From positions 2 to 64,001 of the forward strand of contig CAYFME010000007.1 in the NCBI GenBank assembly GCA_964344145.1: a DNA stretch of 64,000 nucleotides, written 5' to 3'. Of the stretch, positions 6,698 to 61,323 are shown piece after piece (position 1 is the stretch's first letter; every line of letters starts with the position of its first letter). The notes beneath the pieces were generated by a model, which worked only from the letters and a program-made list of their open reading frames with translations, ran no database searches and was not told where the DNA came from. Origin of the DNA: an uncultured Gammaproteobacteria bacterium (GTDB taxonomy: Bacteria; Patescibacteriota; Patescibacteriia; UBA9934). A program made the translations under genes and the position numbers.

Positions 6698-6828
6698 CCT
6701 AAGAACTTCCCTATTTGAGGCTAGTTTCGGTGCGCGGCGAGCACCGAAGTAAGACGACCTTCACCGGTCGTTGTCGAGGAGCACAGCCGCAAGCCGAAAA
6801 TAGACCAAATAGGGAAGTTCTGACTAAC
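6698..6828. repeat. structured intergenic element closed by a 16-bp perfect inverted repeat (agaacttccctatttg / caaatagggaagttct) with internal GC-rich hairpins
   Basis: Arms lie at 6702-6717 and 6806-6821. The interior holds ttcggtgc-gcggcga-gcaccgaa and cgacc-...-ggtcg hairpins. The element sits between the surface-protein stop and the murJ ATG (6829). Confidence 0.4.
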
Positions 6829-8436
6829 ATGTTCTCCTGGCTTTCAGGTAAATCCAACACGATTACAAGCGCGGCGGCCATCGTCGCCTTGTTTTCGATT
6901 TTATCGCGGTTCGTCGGCTTTATTCGAGACCGTATTCTTGCAGGCGCGTTTGGAGCATCCGACACGCTTGATATTTACTTTGCTGCATTTCGCATTCCAG
7001 ACCTGATGTTTCAGCTTGTGGTTGTGGGTGCGCTTTCGGCTAGCTTCATTCCGATTTTCACAAAGTATTACCACCGTAAGCGTGTAAAAAAGGCTTGGAA
7101 GTTCACAAATACGATGCTGACACTGCTAGCCATTGGATTTGGGGTAATCACTGTTGTGATGATGTTTGTTGCCGATCCTCTTGCCGCTCTTGTTGCGCCG
7201 GGATTCGATCCCGAGAAGAGTGCAGCTGTTGCGGATATGTCGCGCGTGATGTTCCTGGCGCAGCTGCTGCTCGCGCTTTCGATGATCTATGGTTCCGTGC
7301 TCCAGGGAGCGAAACGATTTTTTCTCTATTCACTCGCACCAATTTTTTACAACATCGGTATCATCGTTGGAGTTGTGTGGATTGCAACGGAGGATTGGCC
7401 GATCGGATTGGCCTGGGGTGTTGTGCTTGGAGCGGCTCTGCATTTCCTCACGCAGTGGCTTGGTGCTCGTGACCTTGGTCATCGGTTCAAACCGCGTTTT
7501 GTTCTCAAAGACAAAGATGTCGTGTACACGCTCAAGCATATGATGCCACGCACGCTAGGGCTTGCTGTGGGGCAGGTGAATATCTTTTTGATGACAGCAA
7601 TAGCCTCTACGTTGGCGGTAGGGTCCGTGACAGTGCTGCAGTTCGCGTACAACCTGAACTTTTTCGCCGTTGGGATCATTGGCGTGTCGTATGCCATTGC
7701 GGCGTATCCGACGCTGTGTGAGCTGGCGAGTGATAGAAAGAAAACAGCGTTGGTGAAAACGATCTCAACGACCGCACGGCAGATGCTGTTCTTCCTTGTG
7801 CCTGCGACAGTGTTGTTTATTTTGTTGCGCGCGCAAGTTGTGCGTCTTGTTGTTGGTGCTGGCCAGTTTGATTGGGAGGCGACGATCCTCACGGCCAACA
7901 CGTTGGGATTCTTTGCTCTCTCGCTCACGTTACAAGCGCTCGTATTTCTACTCGTTCGTGTTTACTTCGCGCGCGGACAAACCGTAGCGCCGTTTATCAT
8001 TGGTGTGATAGCGGCGATTGTTCACGGAGCCTCAGCAATCATTCTTACGCAATCGATGGAAGTGGTTGGACTAGGGGCGGCATATTCAATTGCCATTGCG
8101 GTGCAGTTTTTGTTGCTTTGGGGTTGGTTGCGCACGCAAATGGGCAGCCTCGATGAGCTTCGAATAATGAAATCACTGTGGATTTTTATTGCTGCTGCCG
8201 TGGCGTGCGGTGTGACGACGCAGGTGGCAAAAACGCTCGTGGTTGAGCTTATTACGCTAGACACATTCTTTGGGGTTTTGGCCCAATTGTTGATTGCTGG
8301 TGGGGTAGGGCTTATTATTTACGTTTTGGTGGCGTATCTATTTAAAAGCCAGGAGCTTTTGGATGTGTTGGGAGGACTAAAACGCAAGCTTATGCGTAGG
8401 CATCATCCAGAAGAGGCAATTTTGGACCAAAGTTAG
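6829..8436 (+). CDS. murJ: lipid II flippase MurJ/MviN
   Basis: The sequence MFSWLSGKSNTITSAAAIVALFSILSRFVGFIRDRILAGAFGAS...DIYFAAFRIPD is the MurJ signature. The track ORF start (6715) reads through the structured element, so the ATG at 6829 is used. Confidence 0.8.
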   Translation: MFSWLSGKSNTITSAAAIVALFSILSRFVGFIRDRILAGAFGASDTLDIYFAAFRIPDLMFQLVVVGALSASFIPIFTKYYHRKRVKKAWKFTNTMLTLLAIGFGVITVVMMFVADPLAALVAPGFDPEKSAAVADMSRVMFLAQLLLALSMIYGSVLQGAKRFFLYSLAPIFYNIGIIVGVVWIATEDWPIGLAWGVVLGAALHFLTQWLGARDLGHRFKPRFVLKDKDVVYTLKHMMPRTLGLAVGQVNIFLMTAIASTLAVGSVTVLQFAYNLNFFAVGIIGVSYAIAAYPTLCELASDRKKTALVKTISTTARQMLFFLVPATVLFILLRAQVVRLVVGAGQFDWEATILTANTLGFFALSLTLQALVFLLVRVYFARGQTVAPFIIGVIAAIVHGASAIILTQSMEVVGLGAAYSIAIAVQFLLLWGWLRTQMGSLDELRIMKSLWIFIAAAVACGVTTQVAKTLVVELITLDTFFGVLAQLLIAGGVGLIIYVLVAYLFKSQELLDVLGGLKRKLMRRHHPEEAILDQS

Positions 8437-10145: not shown

Positions 10146-11360
10146 TCAACGAACGCGCTCGAGCGTTTGTCGAATCTTCCAGCGGTCAGGTCGACGTAGA
10201 AAGGAGAGGACCTCACGCTTGTACTCGATCTGCTCAGGCGGTGGACTGACGATGCGGCGAGTGACGTTGCGTCCACGCTCCGCACCTGGCATGGCGATGT
10301 AGCCGCGTTTCTTGAGATCGGCGAGGATATCCGGTCTGTGCGGGCAGACGAGCAGCTGCACGGCCTTCACCTCGCGGGCGGTCAGTGGACGATCTCCGAC
10401 GATCTCTTGTGCGGCCCAGAGCGCTTCCAGGATGTACGTGTGTCGCCGACTGGGCAGGAGTCCGTTGTTCGACGGCGGGGTAGGAGTCGGTGCGGGTCCA
10501 GGGATCTCTGGCCCCTTTTCTTCCTTGCTCTCCGGCTGATGGAAGTCTGGGAACGTTGCGCGGTGCAGTTCCGTGAGCGCACGCGTCGACCGGGCCACCA
10601 CGTTGTCGATGAACGGTAGGCCCATGACATTGAGTCTCGGCAGGGCGTAGACCCGTACGTTACTTCCTGGCAGCAAGCCTCTTTCCTTCCGCATCATCTT
10701 ACGGGCGGTGATGATGTCGAAGTTGCGACACAGCCGCTCTGCGCATGACAGCGCTTCCTGAAGCGGGATCCCGTCACGCCTGAAGAGCATGGCGATTTCC
10801 AGACCGTTCAGGATACGACGCTTCAAGCCGGTCATGAGGTTGTGGATCTCGACAAGGAGCAGGACATCCCACGGGTCCATGCCGTTCCGGCGGGCGCCGG
10901 CATGCGGCATGCTGCCGTAGTCTCGGATCGTTGACCGCTCCGGTGTCGGCTCGGGATCAGGATCTGGCGACTTGGGGCCCGGCTCAGGATTTGATACGAC
11001 CTCCACCGGTCGATGCCTAACCTGCCGCCGTAGAGCACCACGTTCTCCTTGCACCAGGAGCGCGACGAGATCGTCGGGAAGGCGCTTCCTCCTGGGGGTC
11101 TCTATCTCCCGGAAGTGTTCTCTCTTGGGAACACGCAGAACCCAGAAGTTTCCACCAGCGCGTGAACGAATGGACATCACCCGGCGGTCGTAGATCGTCG
11201 CGGCCATCGGGTTGAACTCACCCGCGCAATCGTGCCAGTCACGGAGGATGTTGACCTGCCAGAGCAGGAGTCCGTCTTCCACCTCACTGTTGCTGTTGAT
11301 GATCCGTGCGGCGTCCCTCAGGAACGCCAGCACGCGGCTCGAAAATTCGAACATCGCCAT
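10146..11360 (-). CDS. hypothetical protein, 404 aa, ~63% GC with Pro/Glu-rich linkers (foreign, actinobacterial-like composition)
   Basis: It is the longest ORF in island A. The segment PEPGPKSPDPDPEPTPE is typical of high-GC Gram-positive proteins. No domain was recognised. Confidence 0.5.
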   Translation of the reverse strand: MAMFEFSSRVLAFLRDAARIINSNSEVEDGLLLWQVNILRDWHDCAGEFNPMAATIYDRRVMSIRSRAGGNFWVLRVPKREHFREIETPRRKRLPDDLVALLVQGERGALRRQVRHRPVEVVSNPEPGPKSPDPDPEPTPERSTIRDYGSMPHAGARRNGMDPWDVLLLVEIHNLMTGLKRRILNGLEIAMLFRRDGIPLQEALSCAERLCRNFDIITARKMMRKERGLLPGSNVRVYALPRLNVMGLPFIDNVVARSTRALTELHRATFPDFHQPESKEEKGPEIPGPAPTPTPPSNNGLLPSRRHTYILEALWAAQEIVGDRPLTAREVKAVQLLVCPHRPDILADLKKRGYIAMPGAERGRNVTRRIVSPPPEQIEYKREVLSFLRRPDRWKIRQTLERVR

Positions 11361-26666: not shown

Positions 26667-28514
26667 ATGGCATACGATCCTCAAGCACAGCGCAAGATCG
26701 CGGGCAACTGGCGCGAGTACCTCAACACGATCGCGCAGAGCATGCGCGTCTACCGATGGGTATGGGACGAGCTGATCGACAGGGACGCGCGACGCTGGGT
26801 GAAGCGGATGGTCGCGGCGCTGTTCGTCACGCTGGCCTTCTTCATGGCCATGCCATGGTTCATCAGTCTCGTGTTCGATGGCCTCGTCGCGCGCGATGTT
26901 CGTCAGCTCGGCATCGGTCTGATCGGATTTCTGGCCTGTCTGTTGGTGATGCGTGTGATGGATTACCTCACGGGCATCTGTCGTGAGTGGGTGCTGGGAC
27001 TCAACATGGGTACACGACATGACCGCATTAGCGAACTGTTCTTCGAGAAATCGCTGGGACAGCACGCGAAGCACCACGATCTTCTCTCGTCATCCAACGT
27101 GGAGAAGGGTCTTGGGAAGGTGTCTGAGTCGCAGGAGATGATGCTCTTTGAGGGCACGGAAGTCCTGCTGACCTTGCCGATCTCATGGGTCTTCCTGTGG
27201 ATTGTGAGTCCGGTGGCTGGCACGATCATGACCGTTGCGCTTCTGGCGCACGTTGTCTGGTCGATGTACCTCAACCGTCGGGTGGTAGAAGTCTGTACGC
27301 CGCTGGATGAGCAGTTCCGTAAGCACAACCGCTACCAGCGCGAGCGCTGGAAGCAGATTGTGCGCGTGAAGGTCAATGCGAAGGAGCGTGAGGAGCTCGA
27401 CAAGATGGATCGATGGTTCCATCGTATCCTCGATTCGGACCGCGACTTCTGGATGCGCTTCATCCTGCACGCGGTCGGTCGTGGAACGTTGACGAACCTC
27501 TTCGTCTTCGGTGTGCTCGTGTACGGCGCGTGGATGGTGTGGGGCGGCTTCTGGCAGGTTGGTCTGCTGTACCCGGTTTTCACCTGGTCCTCGATGATGC
27601 GTGATAACCTGTGGCGTCTGAGCCATGTGGAGCATCGCCTTAACTGGAATTATCCAGCGATCGCATCGTTGCGCGAAGCGCTGACCATTGAGCCCGATAT
27701 CGTCGATACCGCAGACGCCGTGGCACTCAGCCCGGACGAACCGGTGCACGTTGAAATCGACTGTGTCACGCATGCCTACGAAGATGGTGTGCAGGTGCTC
27801 AAGAACGTCTCGCTTTCGATCGAGCCCGGTCAGAAGGTTGCTCTTCTTGGGCTCTCGGGAGCCGGAAAGTCCACGCTTACACAGTTGGTTCTGCGTCAGA
27901 TGGATCCGACGGGTGGCTCGATTCGTGTGAACGGCCACGACCTGCGTGAACTGGAGCTCGCCTCATGGTTGAGCACTGTTGGGCACATCCCGCAGGACTC
28001 CGCAATCCTCGACGGAACGCTTCGCTACAATCTGCTCTACGGTCTGACTGCCCAGGAGATTGAGCAGATGGACGACGATCGAATCCGCGAGCTGATGGCA
28101 AGTGTGGAAATCGACTTCGACCGAGACGGTCTGGAAACGCTGGTTGGTGAGGGCGGCATTAAGCTCTCGGGTGGACAGCAGCAGCGCGTGATGATTGGTG
28201 CGGCAGCGATGAAGAAGCCGCGCTTCATGGTCATTGACGAGGCGACCTCCAGCCTCGATGCGGTTACGGAACGCAAGGTTCATGATGGGTTGCACAAGGT
28301 GCTGACTGCCGACATGAGTGCGCTCATCATCACGCATCGACTCTCAACGGTCCGTGACCTGTGTGATACGTTCGTTGTGATGCGTCCGGCAAAGGGCCTG
28401 ATCAACGGCACGCCGCAGATCGAGGCGGTCGCTGGTTCGTTCGAGGAGCTCTATAGGGTCTCCGAGACGTTCCGCGTGCTCGCCGACGAGCAGGGCCTTG
28501 ACGTGTCGCGCTGA
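26667..28514 (+). CDS. ABC transporter fused permease/ATP-binding protein (MsbA-like exporter), ~62% GC
   Basis: A 6-TM N-domain is followed by Walker A GLSGAGKST, the signature LSGGQQQRV and Walker B FMVIDEAT. Confidence 0.75.
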   Translation: MAYDPQAQRKIAGNWREYLNTIAQSMRVYRWVWDELIDRDARRWVKRMVAALFVTLAFFMAMPWFISLVFDGLVARDVRQLGIGLIGFLACLLVMRVMDYLTGICREWVLGLNMGTRHDRISELFFEKSLGQHAKHHDLLSSSNVEKGLGKVSESQEMMLFEGTEVLLTLPISWVFLWIVSPVAGTIMTVALLAHVVWSMYLNRRVVEVCTPLDEQFRKHNRYQRERWKQIVRVKVNAKEREELDKMDRWFHRILDSDRDFWMRFILHAVGRGTLTNLFVFGVLVYGAWMVWGGFWQVGLLYPVFTWSSMMRDNLWRLSHVEHRLNWNYPAIASLREALTIEPDIVDTADAVALSPDEPVHVEIDCVTHAYEDGVQVLKNVSLSIEPGQKVALLGLSGAGKSTLTQLVLRQMDPTGGSIRVNGHDLRELELASWLSTVGHIPQDSAILDGTLRYNLLYGLTAQEIEQMDDDRIRELMASVEIDFDRDGLETLVGEGGIKLSGGQQQRVMIGAAAMKKPRFMVIDEATSSLDAVTERKVHDGLHKVLTADMSALIITHRLSTVRDLCDTFVVMRPAKGLINGTPQIEAVAGSFEELYRVSETFRVLADEQGLDVSR

Positions 28515-28589
28515 GCGCGACGTGTCCGCGTAAGCTCAAGCCCCCGTACCTGTACGTCAGGTGCGGGGGCGCTGTGCCACTTGTTGTGG

Positions 28590-28934
28590 CTAGAGGTGAA
28601 CCTTGATGAACGTGCCGCCGTGGTGGAGATCGAGCGTGAGCGTGGCCTGGTTGAGCGCACTGATGGGCATGCGCACGGTGACGTCGCGCGTCTCGTCTCC
28701 GGCCTTGACGCGGATCACCAGCTCGAGCTTCTCGGAGCCCGGGGAGCCGAAGGTGCCCACACGAACGAGCTTGCCAGTGCGCTGGATCCTTGACGCTGAC
28801 CGGACGCCCCAGGCGCTGCGCGAGCTCGAACACGGCCAGGCGCGAGGTGAGGACATCGCCGATCCGACGCAGGAGGCTCTGCGTGTCGGAGGAGGCGAAC
28901 TTGGGAAGAAGCGGCTTGAGAAGCGTGCCGAGGG
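28590..28934 (-). pseudogene. frameshifted GC-rich ORF (frame A MTHSPLGTLLKPLL...RPVSVKD joins frame B IQRTGKLVRVGTFG...TFIKVHL near 28790)
   Basis: Two minus-strand ORFs (28402..29001 and 28590..28856) are each protein-like over only half their length. The protein-like halves abut at GGATCC 28783-28788. Confidence 0.3.
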
Positions 28935-28997
28935 GGCTGTGAGTCATCGTTGTCTCCAGGAAGGTACCCGCTAGCCTAGCATGAATGCCGGCCTGCG

Positions 28998-34474: not shown

Positions 34475-34689
34475 ATACGTGTTAGAAAATAGAAGAGAGA
34501 CGTAAGGCACCGACGAAACAGGTCCTGGAGCGAAAGCTCTGATAAAGGTTCGATCTCTCTTTGGAAGGATCGAATTTTCTGCATAGGTCGCGAGGCTATG
34601 AAAGCGCAAAGGCTTTCATAGCGGCGTGATCACAGAGACACGTTCCGTGAATCGGCGCCGCTGCCGATCCCCTCAGACCTGGAAGAGAC

Positions 34690-35253
34690 ATGACCCGCAC
34701 GACCCTCGCCCTCTCCGCCCTGTCCCTGTTCGCCCTCACCGGCTGCATCGACCTGGACGGCGACGGCAACCCCGACATCAACGTCGGCGCCGAGATCTGC
34801 CTCGGCAACCACTCGAAGGTGGGCAACACCGCTGGCATCGAGTTCGACCTGTGCGTCGCCATCGGCGACAGCAACATGGTCGGCTCCCCGTTCCTGGCGG
34901 ACGGTGTGCACATCGAGTGGGTGAACGCGTACGCGGAGCAGGCGTACCAGGACGACAACTACGCCGTGACGGACTTCAACGTGAGCTGCACGGTCGAGGA
35001 CAGCGAGGGTGACCTCGTCCCCGCGACCGCGCACGTCTACACCGACGGAGCCATCGTGGACATCTACATCCCGGACATCCCCTCGCACTTCGAGGCGGAG
35101 TGCACGGGCTCGGTGACCCTCGGCTACGGCGCGTCCGACGTCCTGTTCATCGACGACAACTCGAAGGGCGAGACCACCCACGTCGAGTGGGAGGACGAGA
35201 CCATCGACGACGTCCGCGAGCGCAACGGCGAGCTCCAGATCGACTTCGACTGA
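34690..35253 (+). CDS. acidic lipoprotein (lipobox LTGC), ~66% GC, foreign
   Basis: MTRTTLALSALSLFALTGC is a signal peptide plus lipobox. The RBS ggaagag is present. Overlapping ORFs 34626..35012 and 34630..35373 were judged spurious. Confidence 0.5.
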   Translation: MTRTTLALSALSLFALTGCIDLDGDGNPDINVGAEICLGNHSKVGNTAGIEFDLCVAIGDSNMVGSPFLADGVHIEWVNAYAEQAYQDDNYAVTDFNVSCTVEDSEGDLVPATAHVYTDGAIVDIYIPDIPSHFEAECTGSVTLGYGASDVLFIDDNSKGETTHVEWEDETIDDVRERNGELQIDFD

Positions 35254-35478
35254 GCTTCGACCGCGTCCGCTGAGCACCCGCACGTAGATCCTATACCGTT
35301 GACTCGGGAAGGGTTGCGTAGCGGGTGCACTTGGTTTTAGAGAAACGTCATCGACTCCGCAGCGAGAGTGCATACGGAGCCGAGAAGGGATGCCTGCTCG
35401 CGGCAGCTGAGCGACGCCGGCGTTTCAAGGGTTGGGACCACTTGTCATGTGGGTCACTGCCGCGAGAAGGCAAAACAA

Positions 35479-38591: not shown

Positions 38592-39140
38592 CTAGTGGTA
38601 GCGCGGGTGGGAGACGGAGAAGTGGTAGGAGTGGAAGACCATGTCGCCCATCGCGATGAGGAAGAAGGTGACGCAGAAGATGCCACACACGACGGCGCAG
38701 AAGCCGGCGAAGCCAGCGACCTCGGCGAGGTTGCGCACGCGGTGCGTGTACATCGAAGCAGGCATGGGCCAGTTCTTCGGGTGTCCCTTGAGCTCGTGGA
38801 CGAGCACGAGCAACGCGGCGTGCCGGTAGTGCTCGTTGTTCTGGATGCTCCTGCGGAGCCGCTCGCGCGCGTTGTACACGTGCGTGTAGAAGCTGCGGAA
38901 GCTCGGCTCCAGACCCTCCTTCGACATGAAGTTCAGGGCGTGCCAGAGCTTCCGGCTCGCGAGGTTGATGTCCAGCGTCTCCATGGCGCGGCTGATCGCG
39001 TCGCGGACGTTGCGCTCGACCAGGCGCCGCTCGGGCTCCAGCCAGATGACGTGGATCAGCCACCACGCGACGAAGCCGAGCAAGGCGATGGCGAGGAAGA
39101 GACCGGAGACTGACATGAAGGCGGCGGTGTGCATGGTCAT
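38592..39140 (-). CDS. hypothetical 2-TM membrane protein, ~65% GC (foreign)
   Basis: It is the only one of three overlapping ORFs with protein-like composition. TM helices lie at both ends. Confidence 0.45.
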   Translation of the reverse strand: MTMHTAAFMSVSGLFLAIALLGFVAWWLIHVIWLEPERRLVERNVRDAISRAMETLDINLASRKLWHALNFMSKEGLEPSFRSFYTHVYNARERLRRSIQNNEHYRHAALLVLVHELKGHPKNWPMPASMYTHRVRNLAEVAGFAGFCAVVCGIFCVTFFLIAMGDMVFHSYHFSVSHPRYH

Positions 39141-48765: not shown

Positions 48766-49455
48766 ATGGCAGCTCCTCATCCGCATATCTTGCAAGTCGT
48801 TTTGTGGCTGATGCGCCACGGGGACGTCGATCGCACTGACGTAGTGCCTGGTGCACCCTTCGACCCGCCGCTGTCAGACGACGGTCGCTGGCAGGTCAAC
48901 GCCGCGTTCGAACGTCACATCCTGCCGGAGCTCACACAGCACGACGCAAGCTGGGACGGTCAGCTCTGGAACAGCGGTCTCGTCCGCGCGCGCCAGAGCG
49001 CCGAGAGCATCGGTTCGTTCCTGCTCCAGCTGGGCGACCGCTGTCCCTGGACGCCGGTCACCATGTCCGCGCCCGAGCTGAACCACCAGGCTGTGATGTC
49101 GGCGATCCCGGAGCATCGTGCGCGCTTCCTGGAGCTATGCGACGAGCTCGAGGAGGGGGAGGATACGACGATGCACGACTGGCAGACGCGCTGGTCACAC
49201 TCGTCATGGCTCGCGAGACGGCTCGCCGCGTGGGCTCACGAGCGGATTCTCGTGGATCTGCACGGTGCGAGCACGGACCTCGTGCATCACATCGTGGGCA
49301 TCACGCACCACCCGCTCGCCGGGCTGCTGCACATGTACCCGGGGCACGCTCCGGCTACCTGGCCCAACGCCTCGATCTTCCGCTACACCGTCCACTTCAA
49401 CGGCATCTCGCCGCCGCAGTGCATGGACAGCAAGTTCATCGGCTATAAGGCCTGA
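48766..49455 (+). CDS. histidine phosphatase (phosphoglycerate mutase-like) family protein, ~65% GC (foreign)
   Basis: The RHG motif LMRHGDVD is present. Confidence 0.55.
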   Translation: MAAPHPHILQVVLWLMRHGDVDRTDVVPGAPFDPPLSDDGRWQVNAAFERHILPELTQHDASWDGQLWNSGLVRARQSAESIGSFLLQLGDRCPWTPVTMSAPELNHQAVMSAIPEHRARFLELCDELEEGEDTTMHDWQTRWSHSSWLARRLAAWAHERILVDLHGASTDLVHHIVGITHHPLAGLLHMYPGHAPATWPNASIFRYTVHFNGISPPQCMDSKFIGYKA

Positions 49456-54403: not shown

Positions 54404-54787
54404 TCAAGCGGGCTTGTGCGCTAAGCTCAGGAAGATGCTCTCGAGCAATCCAACCAATAAAATCAATAGAATAGCCGACCACCACGTGAGCCAGCTGTTG
54501 TGCATCAAAAAGAGCGTGAGCTCGAGTAATACGGCAATGAAGATGCCTTGTCTTAGCGAAATCTTTACGAGTCCTTCGAGAGTATAAGGTGTTTTGCGTC
54601 GAACACGAACGATCGTGCTAATAGCGCTGACCGTTCCTGTAAGGCTTGCGAAAAGCGTCAGATGAAAGGCCAAGAGTCCAATTCCGCTGGCCGTGACAGG
54701 GTCAATGCTAAAGAGCGTAATTAACCACGCACACCACGAGATGGCGGTTCCGTAGAGGAGAAAGAGGATGTATTGTCGGACTGACAT
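54404..54787 (-). CDS. small 4-TM membrane protein co-oriented 13 nt downstream of the CDPS gene
   Basis: The 127 aa product has four hydrophobic helices and no known domain. Confidence 0.45.
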   Translation of the reverse strand: MSVRQYILFLLYGTAISWCAWLITLFSIDPVTASGIGLLAFHLTLFASLTGTVSAISTIVRVRRKTPYTLEGLVKISLRQGIFIAVLLELTLFLMHNSWLTWWSAILLILLVGLLESIFLSLAHKPA

Positions 54788-54799
54788 GAGCTGATTGTA

Positions 54800-55504
54800 T
54801 CACGTTGTGTAAGCTTCAAGGATACCAATCTTGTGAGTTGGATCCAATTGTTGGGCAAGTGGCAGAAATTTTGTCCGTCTATTCAGTCCCACAAATATTT
54901 CATCAATGATCGTTAGTCCGGGATAAAGACAGACGTTAAAGAGGGCATCATCGTATGCTAAACCATCCACGCATAGAGATATCTCTTTTAATACATACAT
55001 GGCTAGAGCATCCAACTTTTCTTTTGGAAGGCTTGTAATTTTTGACGCCCTGTCTGGTCTACCATCTAGAATGGCTTGTCGGATGGTTTTACTAAATTCT
55101 TTGTTCTCTTTATAGAAGCGAGTACATGCATTGAGTCTATTTTTGTAACTCAACGAACCTGTAACATCTCTCCACATAACGAGATCCACCATTCTGCCTT
55201 GTGATTTCGGCAATTGATCAATAAGCCGATTAATAAGAAAATGTTTTTCCTCGCCAAGTCTCGTTGCCTTTCGAAGAGCCGCTTGTGGTGACTTGCTATC
55301 CAGGATTTCGATGTTAATTGCATGAATCTCATCTGGAATCAAGATTAGAACTCGATCTTTGGTGTGTTCTAGGCACCATCTTAGGTATTTAAGGACATTC
55401 GTTTCAGTAAAAAACTTGTTTCCTAGGCTTACGCCAAACCACAGATTGTGCTTTCTCGCCTCCACGCTCTCGCGCGTGACATCTAAATACGTTTTTATTT
55501 GCAT
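54800..55504 (-). CDS. tRNA-dependent cyclodipeptide synthase (CDPS, AlbC-like) homolog
   Basis: LWFGVSLGNKFFTETNVLKYLRWC matches the CDPS pocket motif G.S.GN.YF...N...L.W, including the catalytic Ser. YVLKE matches the Y...E pair. Length is 234 aa. Confidence 0.6.
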   Translation of the reverse strand: MQIKTYLDVTRESVEARKHNLWFGVSLGNKFFTETNVLKYLRWCLEHTKDRVLILIPDEIHAINIEILDSKSPQAALRKATRLGEEKHFLINRLIDQLPKSQGRMVDLVMWRDVTGSLSYKNRLNACTRFYKENKEFSKTIRQAILDGRPDRASKITSLPKEKLDALAMYVLKEISLCVDGLAYDDALFNVCLYPGLTIIDEIFVGLNRRTKFLPLAQQLDPTHKIGILEAYTT

Positions 55505-55506
55505 AA

Positions 55507-55866
55507 CTAACCAATCTCACTTCGACTATCGAGAAGATGCGGGTCGATGCGGCAGAGGATGCGATCGATCGTAATGGATGGAAACTGTTGTTCAAGTTCG
55601 TCGCAGATTTGCACGCGCACGCTTTCGATCATGTGACGTGCGGGAGCGTGACGACATGCGACATGCAAAACCGTTTGTTGAAACGACACGACTCGTGCGT
55701 CGACAAGATAGCGCTCGTCAAGAACGCGATCAAGCAGCTCGTTCGCCCGCTTTACAATCATCGCCGCCTCAACCTGTGCACCAATACCATGCCGCTTCAG
55801 TGCGCCGCCAATGAGCGAGTTCATCTGATCCGGACGCTTTTTGAATTGTCGTTGTAGTCGATTCAT
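55507..55866 (-). CDS. DciA-like (DUF721) replicative helicase loader candidate
   Basis: MNRLQRQFKKRPDQMNSLIGGALKRHGIG...VVSFQQTVLHVACRHAPARHMI is the family pattern. The start at 55866 is preferred. Confidence 0.5.
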   Translation of the reverse strand: MNRLQRQFKKRPDQMNSLIGGALKRHGIGAQVEAAMIVKRANELLDRVLDERYLVDARVVSFQQTVLHVACRHAPARHMIESVRVQICDELEQQFPSITIDRILCRIDPHLLDSRSEIG

Positions 55867-56501
55867 GTTCGCTCGTAGGGTTTGTACTGCTCTTTCATAC
55901 GACGGACGACGGATTCGCCGAGTTCGCGGATCGCCGGATCCACATCTGCATACTTCATGCAATACGTAATACTAAACTCAAAGTGTTCTGGATACATGTG
56001 CGCGTTTTGGTACTGAAACGCTTGAAGTGTTCCCTCGATCTTGTCGAGCGCCTTGATGACTTGCGACTCAAAGGTCTCAAGCTGTTCAGATTCAAGCCAC
56101 AAATCATAGATCTCCTGCGCTTGATCATCTGGAAGTGATGAAAAGAGCTCTCTGGCAGCAATCTTTTCACGGTCATGCTTTTGCGCTGCGAGATCATCGT
56201 TGTAAGCATGCGTATTCTTTCCTGTACAATCGTCGCCCATCGGACTGTCGTCACCCGCGATGATCTCTGGGAGATCATGAATCAGTGCCATCTTAAGCGT
56301 CTTTTCAAGATCAATCGGTTTGGACAGCTTTGGCGCGATCGTCATGACCATCATCGCCAGTCGCCACGAATGACTTGCGACGGACTCGTACCAAACAGGC
56401 TTAGGATAGTCTTTCCAACCGTACTGACCACGAAATCGTTCAAGTCGCTTAAGCGCCTCAATCGATGATACAAAATCGTACAGTTGATCGACGTCATTCA
56501 T
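55863..56501 (-). CDS. HD-domain phosphohydrolase (YfbR-like 5'-deoxynucleotidase family)
   Basis: HSWRLAMM...ALIHDLPEIIAGD. Confidence 0.7.
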   Translation of the reverse strand: MNDVDQLYDFVSSIEALKRLERFRGQYGWKDYPKPVWYESVASHSWRLAMMVMTIAPKLSKPIDLEKTLKMALIHDLPEIIAGDDSPMGDDCTGKNTHAYNDDLAAQKHDREKIAARELFSSLPDDQAQEIYDLWLESEQLETFESQVIKALDKIEGTLQAFQYQNAHMYPEHFEFSITYCMKYADVDPAIRELGESVVRRMKEQYKPYERT

Positions 56502-60503: not shown

Positions 60504-60639
60504 AAGAATGTCGAATGTTAGAAGTTAGAACGACGGGATAATACACGAAAAAAGGGAAAAAGTCAATACTCATCTTTTTTGAATGCACGACGACCGCCTC
60601 CCGAGAAGTGGGTGGCGGTCGTACGGGCATCGGAAGACG

Positions 60640-61323
60640 CTACTTGGCGGCCTCCGGTGCGTCGCGGCGCGGGAAGATGCCCCAGCGGAGCATGCGCTCT
60701 GCGTCACGGGTCCGACGCTGGTTGCGCTCCAGCTCACGGCGGGCCAGGAAGTCCGGAACGTTCTCCACGTGCGTGACGCCGCGGAAGGCGTCGTGACGGC
60801 CGTTGAGGCTCGCGACCATGCGCTCGACACGCGTATGCGCGAAGCGCCGCTGGAGCGCGCTGGCGATGGTCATGCTGGAGGCGTTGATGTGCTCCTCCTC
60901 CTGACGCTCACCGGGCTCGTGGCCCAGGAGTATCTTGCGGCCAGCACAGCAGGTGTGCTCCAGCACGATGATGTGCTCGGTGTGGTGCTCGCCGATCAGC
61001 GGCGCGATCTCCTCCTCGATGATGCGGTCGCGGTAGCTCTCGTCGTCGGCCATGCGCGGCACGATCCCGGCCAGGCAGGGCCCGCCGTCGTTGAGCCAGC
61101 GCAGGTTCGGACGGAAGCCCGCCGCGCGCTCGAGCTGGTTGCCCACGCCGGCGCGCACCAGGTGGCGGTCCCAGGCCGTCTGCAGCCCCGGCTCCACGCA
61201 GCCCAGGATCAGGACCTGCGCACCCTCCGCCAGCGTGAACTGATCCATCCCGCCGTCGGGAATCCACCGGTACATACCGGTCACTCGTAGGGCCATGCCC
61301 ACTCCACTCATCAGCAAGTTCAT
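60640..61323 (-). CDS. hypothetical protein, ~66% GC (foreign)
   Basis: It is the most protein-like of three overlapping ORFs. A GC-rich hairpin (60575-60607) lies downstream. Confidence 0.4.
   Translation of the reverse strand: MNLLMSGVGMALRVTGMYRWIPDGGMDQFTLAEGAQVLILGCVEPGLQTAWDRHLVRAGVGNQLERAAGFRPNLRWLNDGGPCLAGIVPRMADDESYRDRIIEEEIAPLIGEHHTEHIIVLEHTCCAGRKILLGHEPGERQEEEHINASSMTIASALQRRFAHTRVERMVASLNGRHDAFRGVTHVENVPDFLARRELERNQRRTRDAERMLRWGIFPRRDAPEAAK

Follow-up and report, generated by a model that had tools for sequence, protein, structure and literature searches.

The locus and its predicted CDPS

The stretch of DNA analysed here, a 64,000-nucleotide (nt) segment of contig CAYFME010000007.1 referred to as a whole as the window, carries a gene for a predicted tRNA-dependent cyclodipeptide synthase (CDPS) of 234 residues within a compact string of co-directional genes. 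Upstream of it are genes for a UvrD/AddB-type helicase, an HD-domain (YfbR-like) protein and a DciA-like protein, the last of which passes its profile only weakly (PF05258, 25.9 bits versus a cut-off of 24) and is syntenic with dciA of relatives. Downstream follow a gene for a 127-residue protein with four predicted transmembrane segments (the 4-TM gene), mreB (447 bits), mreC, a putative mreD and the PBP2 gene. Just 2 nt separate the dciA-like gene from the CDPS start codon, and 12 nt lie between the CDPS and the 4-TM open reading frame (ORF) on the same strand. An earlier annotation made from the letters alone (hereafter, the original prediction) had described a CDPS homologue tightly followed by a 4-TM gene between dciA and mreB, and both ORFs and their setting were found as it described (Table 1). 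Given the 2-nt spacer, the CDPS is probably co-transcribed with the helicase, HD and dciA genes. The original prediction also saw no oxidase, P450 or methyltransferase gene next to the CDPS; none occurs within ~6 kb on either side, nor does any other tailoring-type Pfam domain.

By every sequence and structure criterion applied, the predicted 234-residue enzyme is a bona fide CDPS of the XYP subfamily. It scored 42.4 bits with the CDPS profile PF16715 (cut-off 27, E = 8.7e-11), the search that the original prediction had proposed as a check, and 81.2 bits with TIGR04539 (cut-off 45, E = 7.6e-23). Its best sequence matches in the PDB (E = 6e-21) were the entries for ParcuCDPS (CDPS 90, from Parcubacteria bacterium RAAC4_OD1_1; 7QB8 and, for mutants, the 7QA series), which makes cyclo(His-Pro) and cyclo(His-Glu). 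The AlphaFold2 model, for which 62 homologues served as input, was very confident (pLDDT 97.2, pTM 0.92) and matched the Rossmann fold, like that of class-I aminoacyl-tRNA synthetases, of solved CDPSs. In a Foldseek search of the PDB with this model, the top 50 matches were CDPSs without exception (50/50; TM-scores 0.65–0.83), ParcuCDPS being the first (TM-score ~0.8).

A family alignment including AlbC and ParcuCDPS placed AlbC residues S37, Y178, E182 and Y202 at S26, Y170, E174 and Y194 of the window protein, AlbC N40 at N29 and AlbC H203 at P195, with S26 and D58 of ParcuCDPS falling on residues of the same number. Several of these residues lie in the strings singled out in the original prediction: the hallmark string LWFGVSLGNKFFTETNVLKYLRWC (residues 21–44) includes S26, IPDEIH (56–61) includes D58, and YVLKE (170–174) includes Y170 and E174. 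The AlbC string quoted with them was correct (the AlbC sequence used agreed exactly with PDB 3oqv_A over residues 2–239), and the Ser, Tyr and Glu that it expected to be catalytic are all kept in the alignment to AlbC. S26, E174 and Y194 are invariant in alignments of both 51 and 62 sequences; Y170 reaches 90% conservation or more in the former and does not vary in the latter, P195 shows the reverse, and D58 is invariant in one of the two, with 90% or more in the other. The XYP signature (Y202-P203 rather than Y202-H203, in AlbC numbering) is present as Y194-P195, and residue 40, which is variable in this subfamily, is N29.

AlbC of Streptomyces noursei, the founding CDPS (NYH subfamily, PDB 3OQV), thus shares with the window CDPS the Ser, Tyr, Glu, Tyr and N40 residues and the Rossmann-type fold but is only ~19% identical to it, has H203 where the window protein has P195, and is encoded together with the AlbA/B oxidase and the membrane protein AlbD (PMC2922099), whereas the window CDPS is an orphan. 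ParcuCDPS has in common with it the XYP subfamily, a host in the candidate phyla radiation (CPR), near-equal length (230 versus 234 residues), the S26/D58/Y/E/Y-P set and the fold, but the two are ~25% identical and belong to separate subclades. The roles of the catalytic residues were established by mutagenesis in ParcuCDPS, whose essential D58 hydrogen-bonds the catalytic Ser (PMC7613923). If the mechanism established for the family holds here, the first aminoacyl-tRNA would put its aminoacyl group into pocket P1 and acylate S26, which would be held in position by D58; a second aminoacyl-tRNA would bind at pocket P2 to give a dipeptidyl-enzyme, and Y170, E174 and Y194 would then help cyclisation to a 2,5-diketopiperazine.

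The CDPS as a probable single-gene insertion

The window shows synteny and ~72–77% nucleotide identity with a Candidatus Uhrbacteria metagenome-assembled genome (MAG; GCA_018664485.1, loci L001–3) and its relatives. Six lineages (L001–3, L004–6, L011–12, L013–15, L016 and L038–39) have the 4-TM gene between dciA and mreB without a CDPS, in the order helicase-(HD)-dciA-4TM-mreB-mreC-mreD-pbp2-greA, with 12–218 nt between dciA and the 4-TM gene. When L001, L011, L013 and L038 were compared with the window by blastn, homology stopped at 55513, the end of dciA, and restarted at 54803/54804, and the segment so delimited would consist of the present dciA stop codon, two further bases and the CDPS coding sequence. 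L038, whose MreB, helicase and 4-TM protein are 98%, 87% and 88% identical to those of the window, reads ...GAGATTTTG TGA TAAAAT ACGTAC ATG into its 4-TM gene. The window instead has ...GAGATTGGT TAG TT ATG at the junction of dciA and the CDPS, and TGA TACAAT CAGCTC ATG at that of the CDPS and the 4-TM gene. The CDPS stop codon TGA (54802–54800) aligns with the dciA stop codon of L038, and, from this alignment, the CDPS appears to end at what was once the stop of dciA. Neither repeats flanking the inserted segment nor genes of mobile elements were seen. A different gene upstream of the CDPS in L009 and L010 was considered and ruled out, these being collinear fragments of the same locus by blastn.

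The CDPS also stands out by composition and by its isolation in sequence databases. Its GC content (0.407) and GC content at third codon positions (GC3, 0.379) are both the lowest among the 50 window ORFs of at least 150 residues, for which mean GC3 is 0.572 and the next lowest value 0.463; its neighbours have 0.53–0.59. A word-indexed search of 5.8 billion clusters returned the identical protein and matches at 26–30% identity, and nothing else. HMMER, run exhaustively against 1.84 billion representatives, yielded 315 relatives at E<=1e-3, the closest at 40–41% identity, and a profile search gave as best relative a protein (P0171) at 46%, the highest identity to any relative found.

The same presence/absence pattern would arise if the CDPS were ancestral at this locus and had been lost independently in the relatives. 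Gene loss is frequent in CPR genomes, the short spacers on both sides of the CDPS could mean long residence, and relatives also differ in whether they carry the neighbouring HD gene. Such a history, however, needs no fewer than four or five separate and precise deletions, one of them in the 50%-identity outgroup L004, and has to accommodate a CDPS whose GC3 has not been ameliorated towards that of its neighbours and which has no Uhrbacteria-like orthologue above 46% identity among the 5.8 billion clusters. We consider repeated loss very unlikely; gain is favoured because of presence/absence parsimony, the outgroup and the missing orthologue.

Table 1. Positions of the features discussed, in window coordinates unless a related locus is named
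Feature	Position	Strand	Remarks
CDPS gene	54800..55504	minus	234 residues, ATG...TGA; XYP subfamily predicted from profile, alignment and model evidence
4-TM gene	54404..54787	minus	127 residues; directly upstream of mreB; conserved within the lineage
-10-like element TGATACAAT with 6-nt spacer	54788..54802	minus	immediately precedes the 4-TM ATG; shares bases with the stop codon of the CDPS
dciA-like gene	55507..55866	minus	119 residues on the source contig; weak pass of PF05258
HD-domain YfbR-like 5'-deoxynucleotidase gene	55863-56501	minus	between helicase and dciA; GC3 0.526, host-like
Inferred inserted segment	54803..55509	minus	~707 nt: TAG (present dciA stop), TT and CDPS coding sequence
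CDPS-adjacent GNAT gene	L017 6717-7160	plus	
CDPS-adjacent GNAT gene	L018 (L018/19) 6726-7172	minus	
CDPS-adjacent GNAT gene	L020 (L020/21) 1584-2000	plus	
CDPS-adjacent GNAT gene	L033 6681-7235	minus	
CDPS-adjacent GNAT gene	L035 5489-5917	minus	
CDPS-adjacent GNAT gene	L036 3852-4289	minus	
High-GC outlier ORF	48766-49455	plus	
High-GC outlier ORF	26667-28514	plus	
High-GC outlier ORF	60583-61290	plus	
High-GC outlier ORF	38592-39140	minus	
High-GC outlier ORF	10146-11360	minus	
High-GC outlier ORF	34630-35373	minus	
High-GC outlier ORF	28402-28947	minus	

The adjacent 4-TM gene

The original prediction had taken the 4-TM protein for a partner of the CDPS, the two forming a unit in which the membrane protein might serve export, immunity or tailoring. 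A precedent exists in the membrane protein AlbD of the albonoursin CDPS operon (PMC2922099), and the 12-nt spacing on one strand would suit such a unit. Synteny nevertheless largely refutes it: the 4-TM gene keeps the same position in the six CDPS-less lineages, and a phmmer search of every ORF in 21 CDPS-bearing loci elsewhere, with the 4-TM protein as query, which addresses the co-occurrence that the original prediction had suggested checking, found no homologue in any of them (0/21) even at E<=10. Moreover, the protein is 88–91% identical to its orthologues in CDPS-less relatives, giving no sign of co-adaptation, and a conserved −10-like box precedes its gene with or without the CDPS. We therefore regard a two-gene unit as highly improbable and, judging from these sequence comparisons, the 4-TM gene as an older resident of the mreBCD–pbp2 neighbourhood, whose constant location immediately upstream of mreB points to no more than a connection with the cell-shape operon.

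Kyte-Doolittle hydropathy and an AlphaFold2 model of modest confidence (pLDDT 69; helices 3–28, 30–63, 70–96 and 102–123) both indicate four long helices in the 127-residue protein. It belongs to no Pfam or NCBIfam family and shows no similarity to MreD by hhalign, and its model found no fold match in the PDB. Homologues are 75–91% identical, with one more at 50%; close ones thus exist for it, unlike for the CDPS. Between the window and near-identical assemblies of the same project (L007, L010), all differences but one fall within 70 bp of the 4-TM gene (54695–54764), the remaining one being at 52999 in L007, and the CDPS is invariant among these assemblies. The variant cluster in the 4-TM gene may reflect strain microdiversity or an assembly effect.

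The −10-like box, a TGATA(C/A)AAT element (TGnTA(C/A)AAT-like) 6–7 nt upstream of the 4-TM start codon, is kept with and without the CDPS, reading TGATACAAT in L001 as in the window, TGATAAAAT in L038, TATAAT in L013 and TATACT in L011. It was not called in a consensus scan that needs a −35 hexamer. The element is a possible promoter of the 4-TM/mreBCD/pbp2 unit, and its closeness to the 4-TM start suggests that the transcript of this unit would be leaderless or nearly so.

Relatives and distribution of the CDPS

Relatives of the window CDPS, sought in GTDB representative genomes with a 7-sequence alignment among the searches made, are patchily distributed over Saccharibacteria, Campbellbacteria, other Patescibacteria/Parcubacteria, Woesearchaeota, Nanoarchaeota and Bdellovibrionales (by source names and GTDB genome titles). 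In a rough neighbour-joining tree without support values, the window CDPS forms a long branch in a subclade made up mostly of Patescibacteria, the sister of the ParcuCDPS clade. CDPSs from CPR were catalogued in 2018, about a dozen sequences in all, and ParcuCDPS was characterised in that year and crystallised in 2022 (PMC5816076, PMC7613923). The window protein is, judged by its sequence, a divergent new member of a CPR-dominated XYP group that was catalogued earlier without any characterised member, and enzymes of this kind are known from CPR. The original prediction had found a CDPS in a housekeeping neighbourhood unusual, which proves overstated: the closest relatives of the CDPS are likewise surrounded by housekeeping genes, with no classical tailoring enzymes, and stand-alone CDPSs in such settings are the norm in the CPR-associated XYP clade.

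The same clade was observed in DPANN archaea (L031, L033 and L037, Woesearchaeota and Nanoarchaeota MAGs) and in predatory bacteria (L032 and L034, Bdellovibrionales), misbinning of MAG contigs being possible in both cases. These members extend a published pattern in which XYP CDPSs occur in symbionts, parasites and predators (Legionella, Rickettsiella, Protochlamydia, Micavibrio).

A gene for a small GNAT acetyltransferase (PF00583-type, ~140–185 residues, mutually related by hidden Markov model, HMM) lies directly beside the CDPS in 6 of the 18 distinct related loci (Table 1). Its orientation varies, and one of the six loci is a Nanoarchaeota MAG. CDPS and GNAT may be a conserved pair in CPR and DPANN, for which the sole precedent found is the GNAT-fold ligase beside the Rickettsiella grylli CDPS (Aravind et al.; PMC2922099). 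An HMM built from these CDPS neighbours found no homologue in the window.

Substrate pockets and predicted specificity

Pocket residues were taken as defined by Gondry et al. (AlbC residues 33, 35, 65, 67, 119, 185, 186 and 200 for P1; 152, 155, 156, 159, 204, 206 and 207 for P2), in the register of Gondry 2018 Data Set 4. The register given by MAFFT at P1 positions 3–4 (I54/I56) was dropped, since it turns the P1 motif of ParcuCDPS into GAIIWELY whereas the published motif is GAYAWELY/FEWKYTR, which leads to L55/P57. On this basis P1 of the window CDPS is wholly apolar (W22, G24, L55, P57, W111, L177, C178, C192; WGLPWLCC), and P2 comprises A144, D147, G148, D151, G196, T198 and I199 (ADGDGTI).

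In P1 of ParcuCDPS, Y55, E174 and Y189 recognise the imidazole of the substrate, and engineered Y55V/E174L/Y189L variants lost His and took Leu or Phe (PMC7613923). The window CDPS has L55, L177 and C192 at these positions, which places it outside the His-incorporating specificity group of the ParcuCDPS type. By analogy, a non-polar residue of the Leu/Phe/Met type is the most likely first substrate, because P1 is wholly apolar and lacks the His triad of ParcuCDPS, and the engineered variants switched from His to Leu or Phe. A His-containing product seems unlikely on the same comparison, as the P1 triad is replaced and P2 (ADGDGTI) differs from that of ParcuCDPS (FEWKYTR).

WGLPWLCC/ADGDGTI matched the consensus of no group with a measured product in Table 3 and Data Set 4 of Gondry 2018, and resembled only uncharacterised entries on the sheet 'XYP CDPSs - not classified', the other sheets being covered in part. 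Three of these, from Kaiserbacteria (OGG79347.1, WGVSWLFI/INGDGTE), Buchananbacteria (OGY49632.1, WGVAWHFL/INGDGSG) and a supposed alphaproteobacterium (OFW98505.1, on a RIFCSPHIGHO2_12_FULL_66_14 contig), share with the window CDPS the pattern W-G-x-x-W in P1 and x-x-G-D-G-T/S-x in P2. The RIFCSPHIGHO2_12_FULL_66_14 contig was also recovered independently in our searches (L023), its CDPS being 43–44% identical to that of the window and in the same subclade. The window CDPS differs from the unclassified XYP entries in L-P at P1 positions 3–4, a unique L-C-C tail of P1 and an extra acidic residue, D147, in P2. Since no entry listed for this pocket group has a measured product, the second residue and the product of the window CDPS are not predictable from it. 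That the protein belongs to an uncharacterised specificity group of XYP enzymes associated with CPR and DPANN (P1 W-G-x-x-W..., P2 ..G-D-G..), with a product possibly new to CDPSs, is an idea to which we give a slim chance. The acidic P2 (D147, D151) might, for instance, take a basic amino acid. Among the products seen so far, Lys is absent from both CDPS subfamilies and Arg from the XYP subfamily (PMC5816076).

Strength of the combined interpretation

Taking identity, synteny and distribution together, we hold it to be likely that the window contains a functional-looking XYP CDPS from a CPR-dominated clade, acquired horizontally as a single-gene insert of ~707 bp in one Uhrbacteria-like lineage and with no partner nearby. 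Several points weigh against parts of this interpretation. In 12 of the 14 related loci compared, too, the CDPS has a lower GC3 than the genes around it (z down to −4; hosts with 29%–48% GC; L017–L036). Because the CDPS is AT-shifted in most of these, its low GC3 in the window argues less strongly for a recent transfer than it seems to; it may be a trait of a mobile CDPS family rather than a clock for this event, and it suggests either repeated transfer of members of the clade or an inherent AT bias. The copies of the gene that were recovered do not differ from one another, leaving no dN/dS, and the subclade placement comes from a tree that lacks support values. Expression and operon structure are read from gene spacing alone, and promoter and terminator scans gave nothing above shuffled expectation. 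The P1 prediction leans on analogy with engineered ParcuCDPS, in a pocket-motif group with no characterised member in the part of Data Set 4 covered, and the two tryptophans W22 and W111 may constrict P1, so that a small residue would be preferred. A sizeable share of the recombinant CDPSs in the published tables are moreover listed as inactive in E. coli, several XYP entries among them.

This last point bears on a further alternative, in which the window protein keeps the CDPS fold but is inactive or diverged, either as an unexpressed remnant of transfer or as an aminoacyl-tRNA-dependent enzyme with a product other than a cyclodipeptide. The lack of tailoring or export genes found nearby would accord with this, as would the unusual Cys-Cys pair in P1 and the Pro that takes the place of AlbC residue 67. 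The ORF is, however, intact and full length with every catalytic residue present, its fold is predicted very confidently, and its place in a compact co-directional gene string makes read-through transcription likely. We judge this alternative unlikely and retain the reading of a functional-looking, horizontally acquired CDPS.

Other features of the window

The HD gene is present in L013–15 and missing from L001–6, L011–12 and L038–39, which makes it a second single-gene indel at the locus. Seven ORFs of the window, which has 52% GC, are strong outliers towards high GC (0.59–0.70, with GC3 up to 0.96; Table 1). Pfam identifies two of them as real genes, one for a His_Phos_1 phosphatase and one for an ABC exporter; the rest have no family and may be either spurious or of foreign origin. 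In composition the window resembles a mosaic, with deviations both ways. No tRNA, tmRNA or Rfam-family RNA was detected at the gathering threshold when the 64 kb were scanned for tRNAs and Rfam families.

Implications

CPR bacteria are host-dependent and have few secondary metabolites. A diketopiperazine made from charged tRNAs would be among the cheapest bioactive molecules for such a cell, and its identity could inform symbiont–host chemistry. The finding itself is modest, one more divergent orphan XYP CDPS in ultra-small CPR bacteria, and leaves the understanding of how CDPSs work unchanged. Its remaining interest lies in the product, in the pairing of CDPS and GNAT in relatives and in the clean acquisition of a single gene by a streamlined genome, with the insertion bounded to a few bases and the empty site kept in close relatives. 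The apolar P1, with its Leu, Pro and Cys-Cys, resembles the engineered ParcuCDPS variants and so offers a natural test of present specificity rules. Should the protein indeed represent an uncharacterised specificity group with a product of its own, episymbionts might deploy it as a weapon against their hosts or to signal to them, and in relatives the adjacent small GNAT might modify the cyclodipeptide further or neutralise it.

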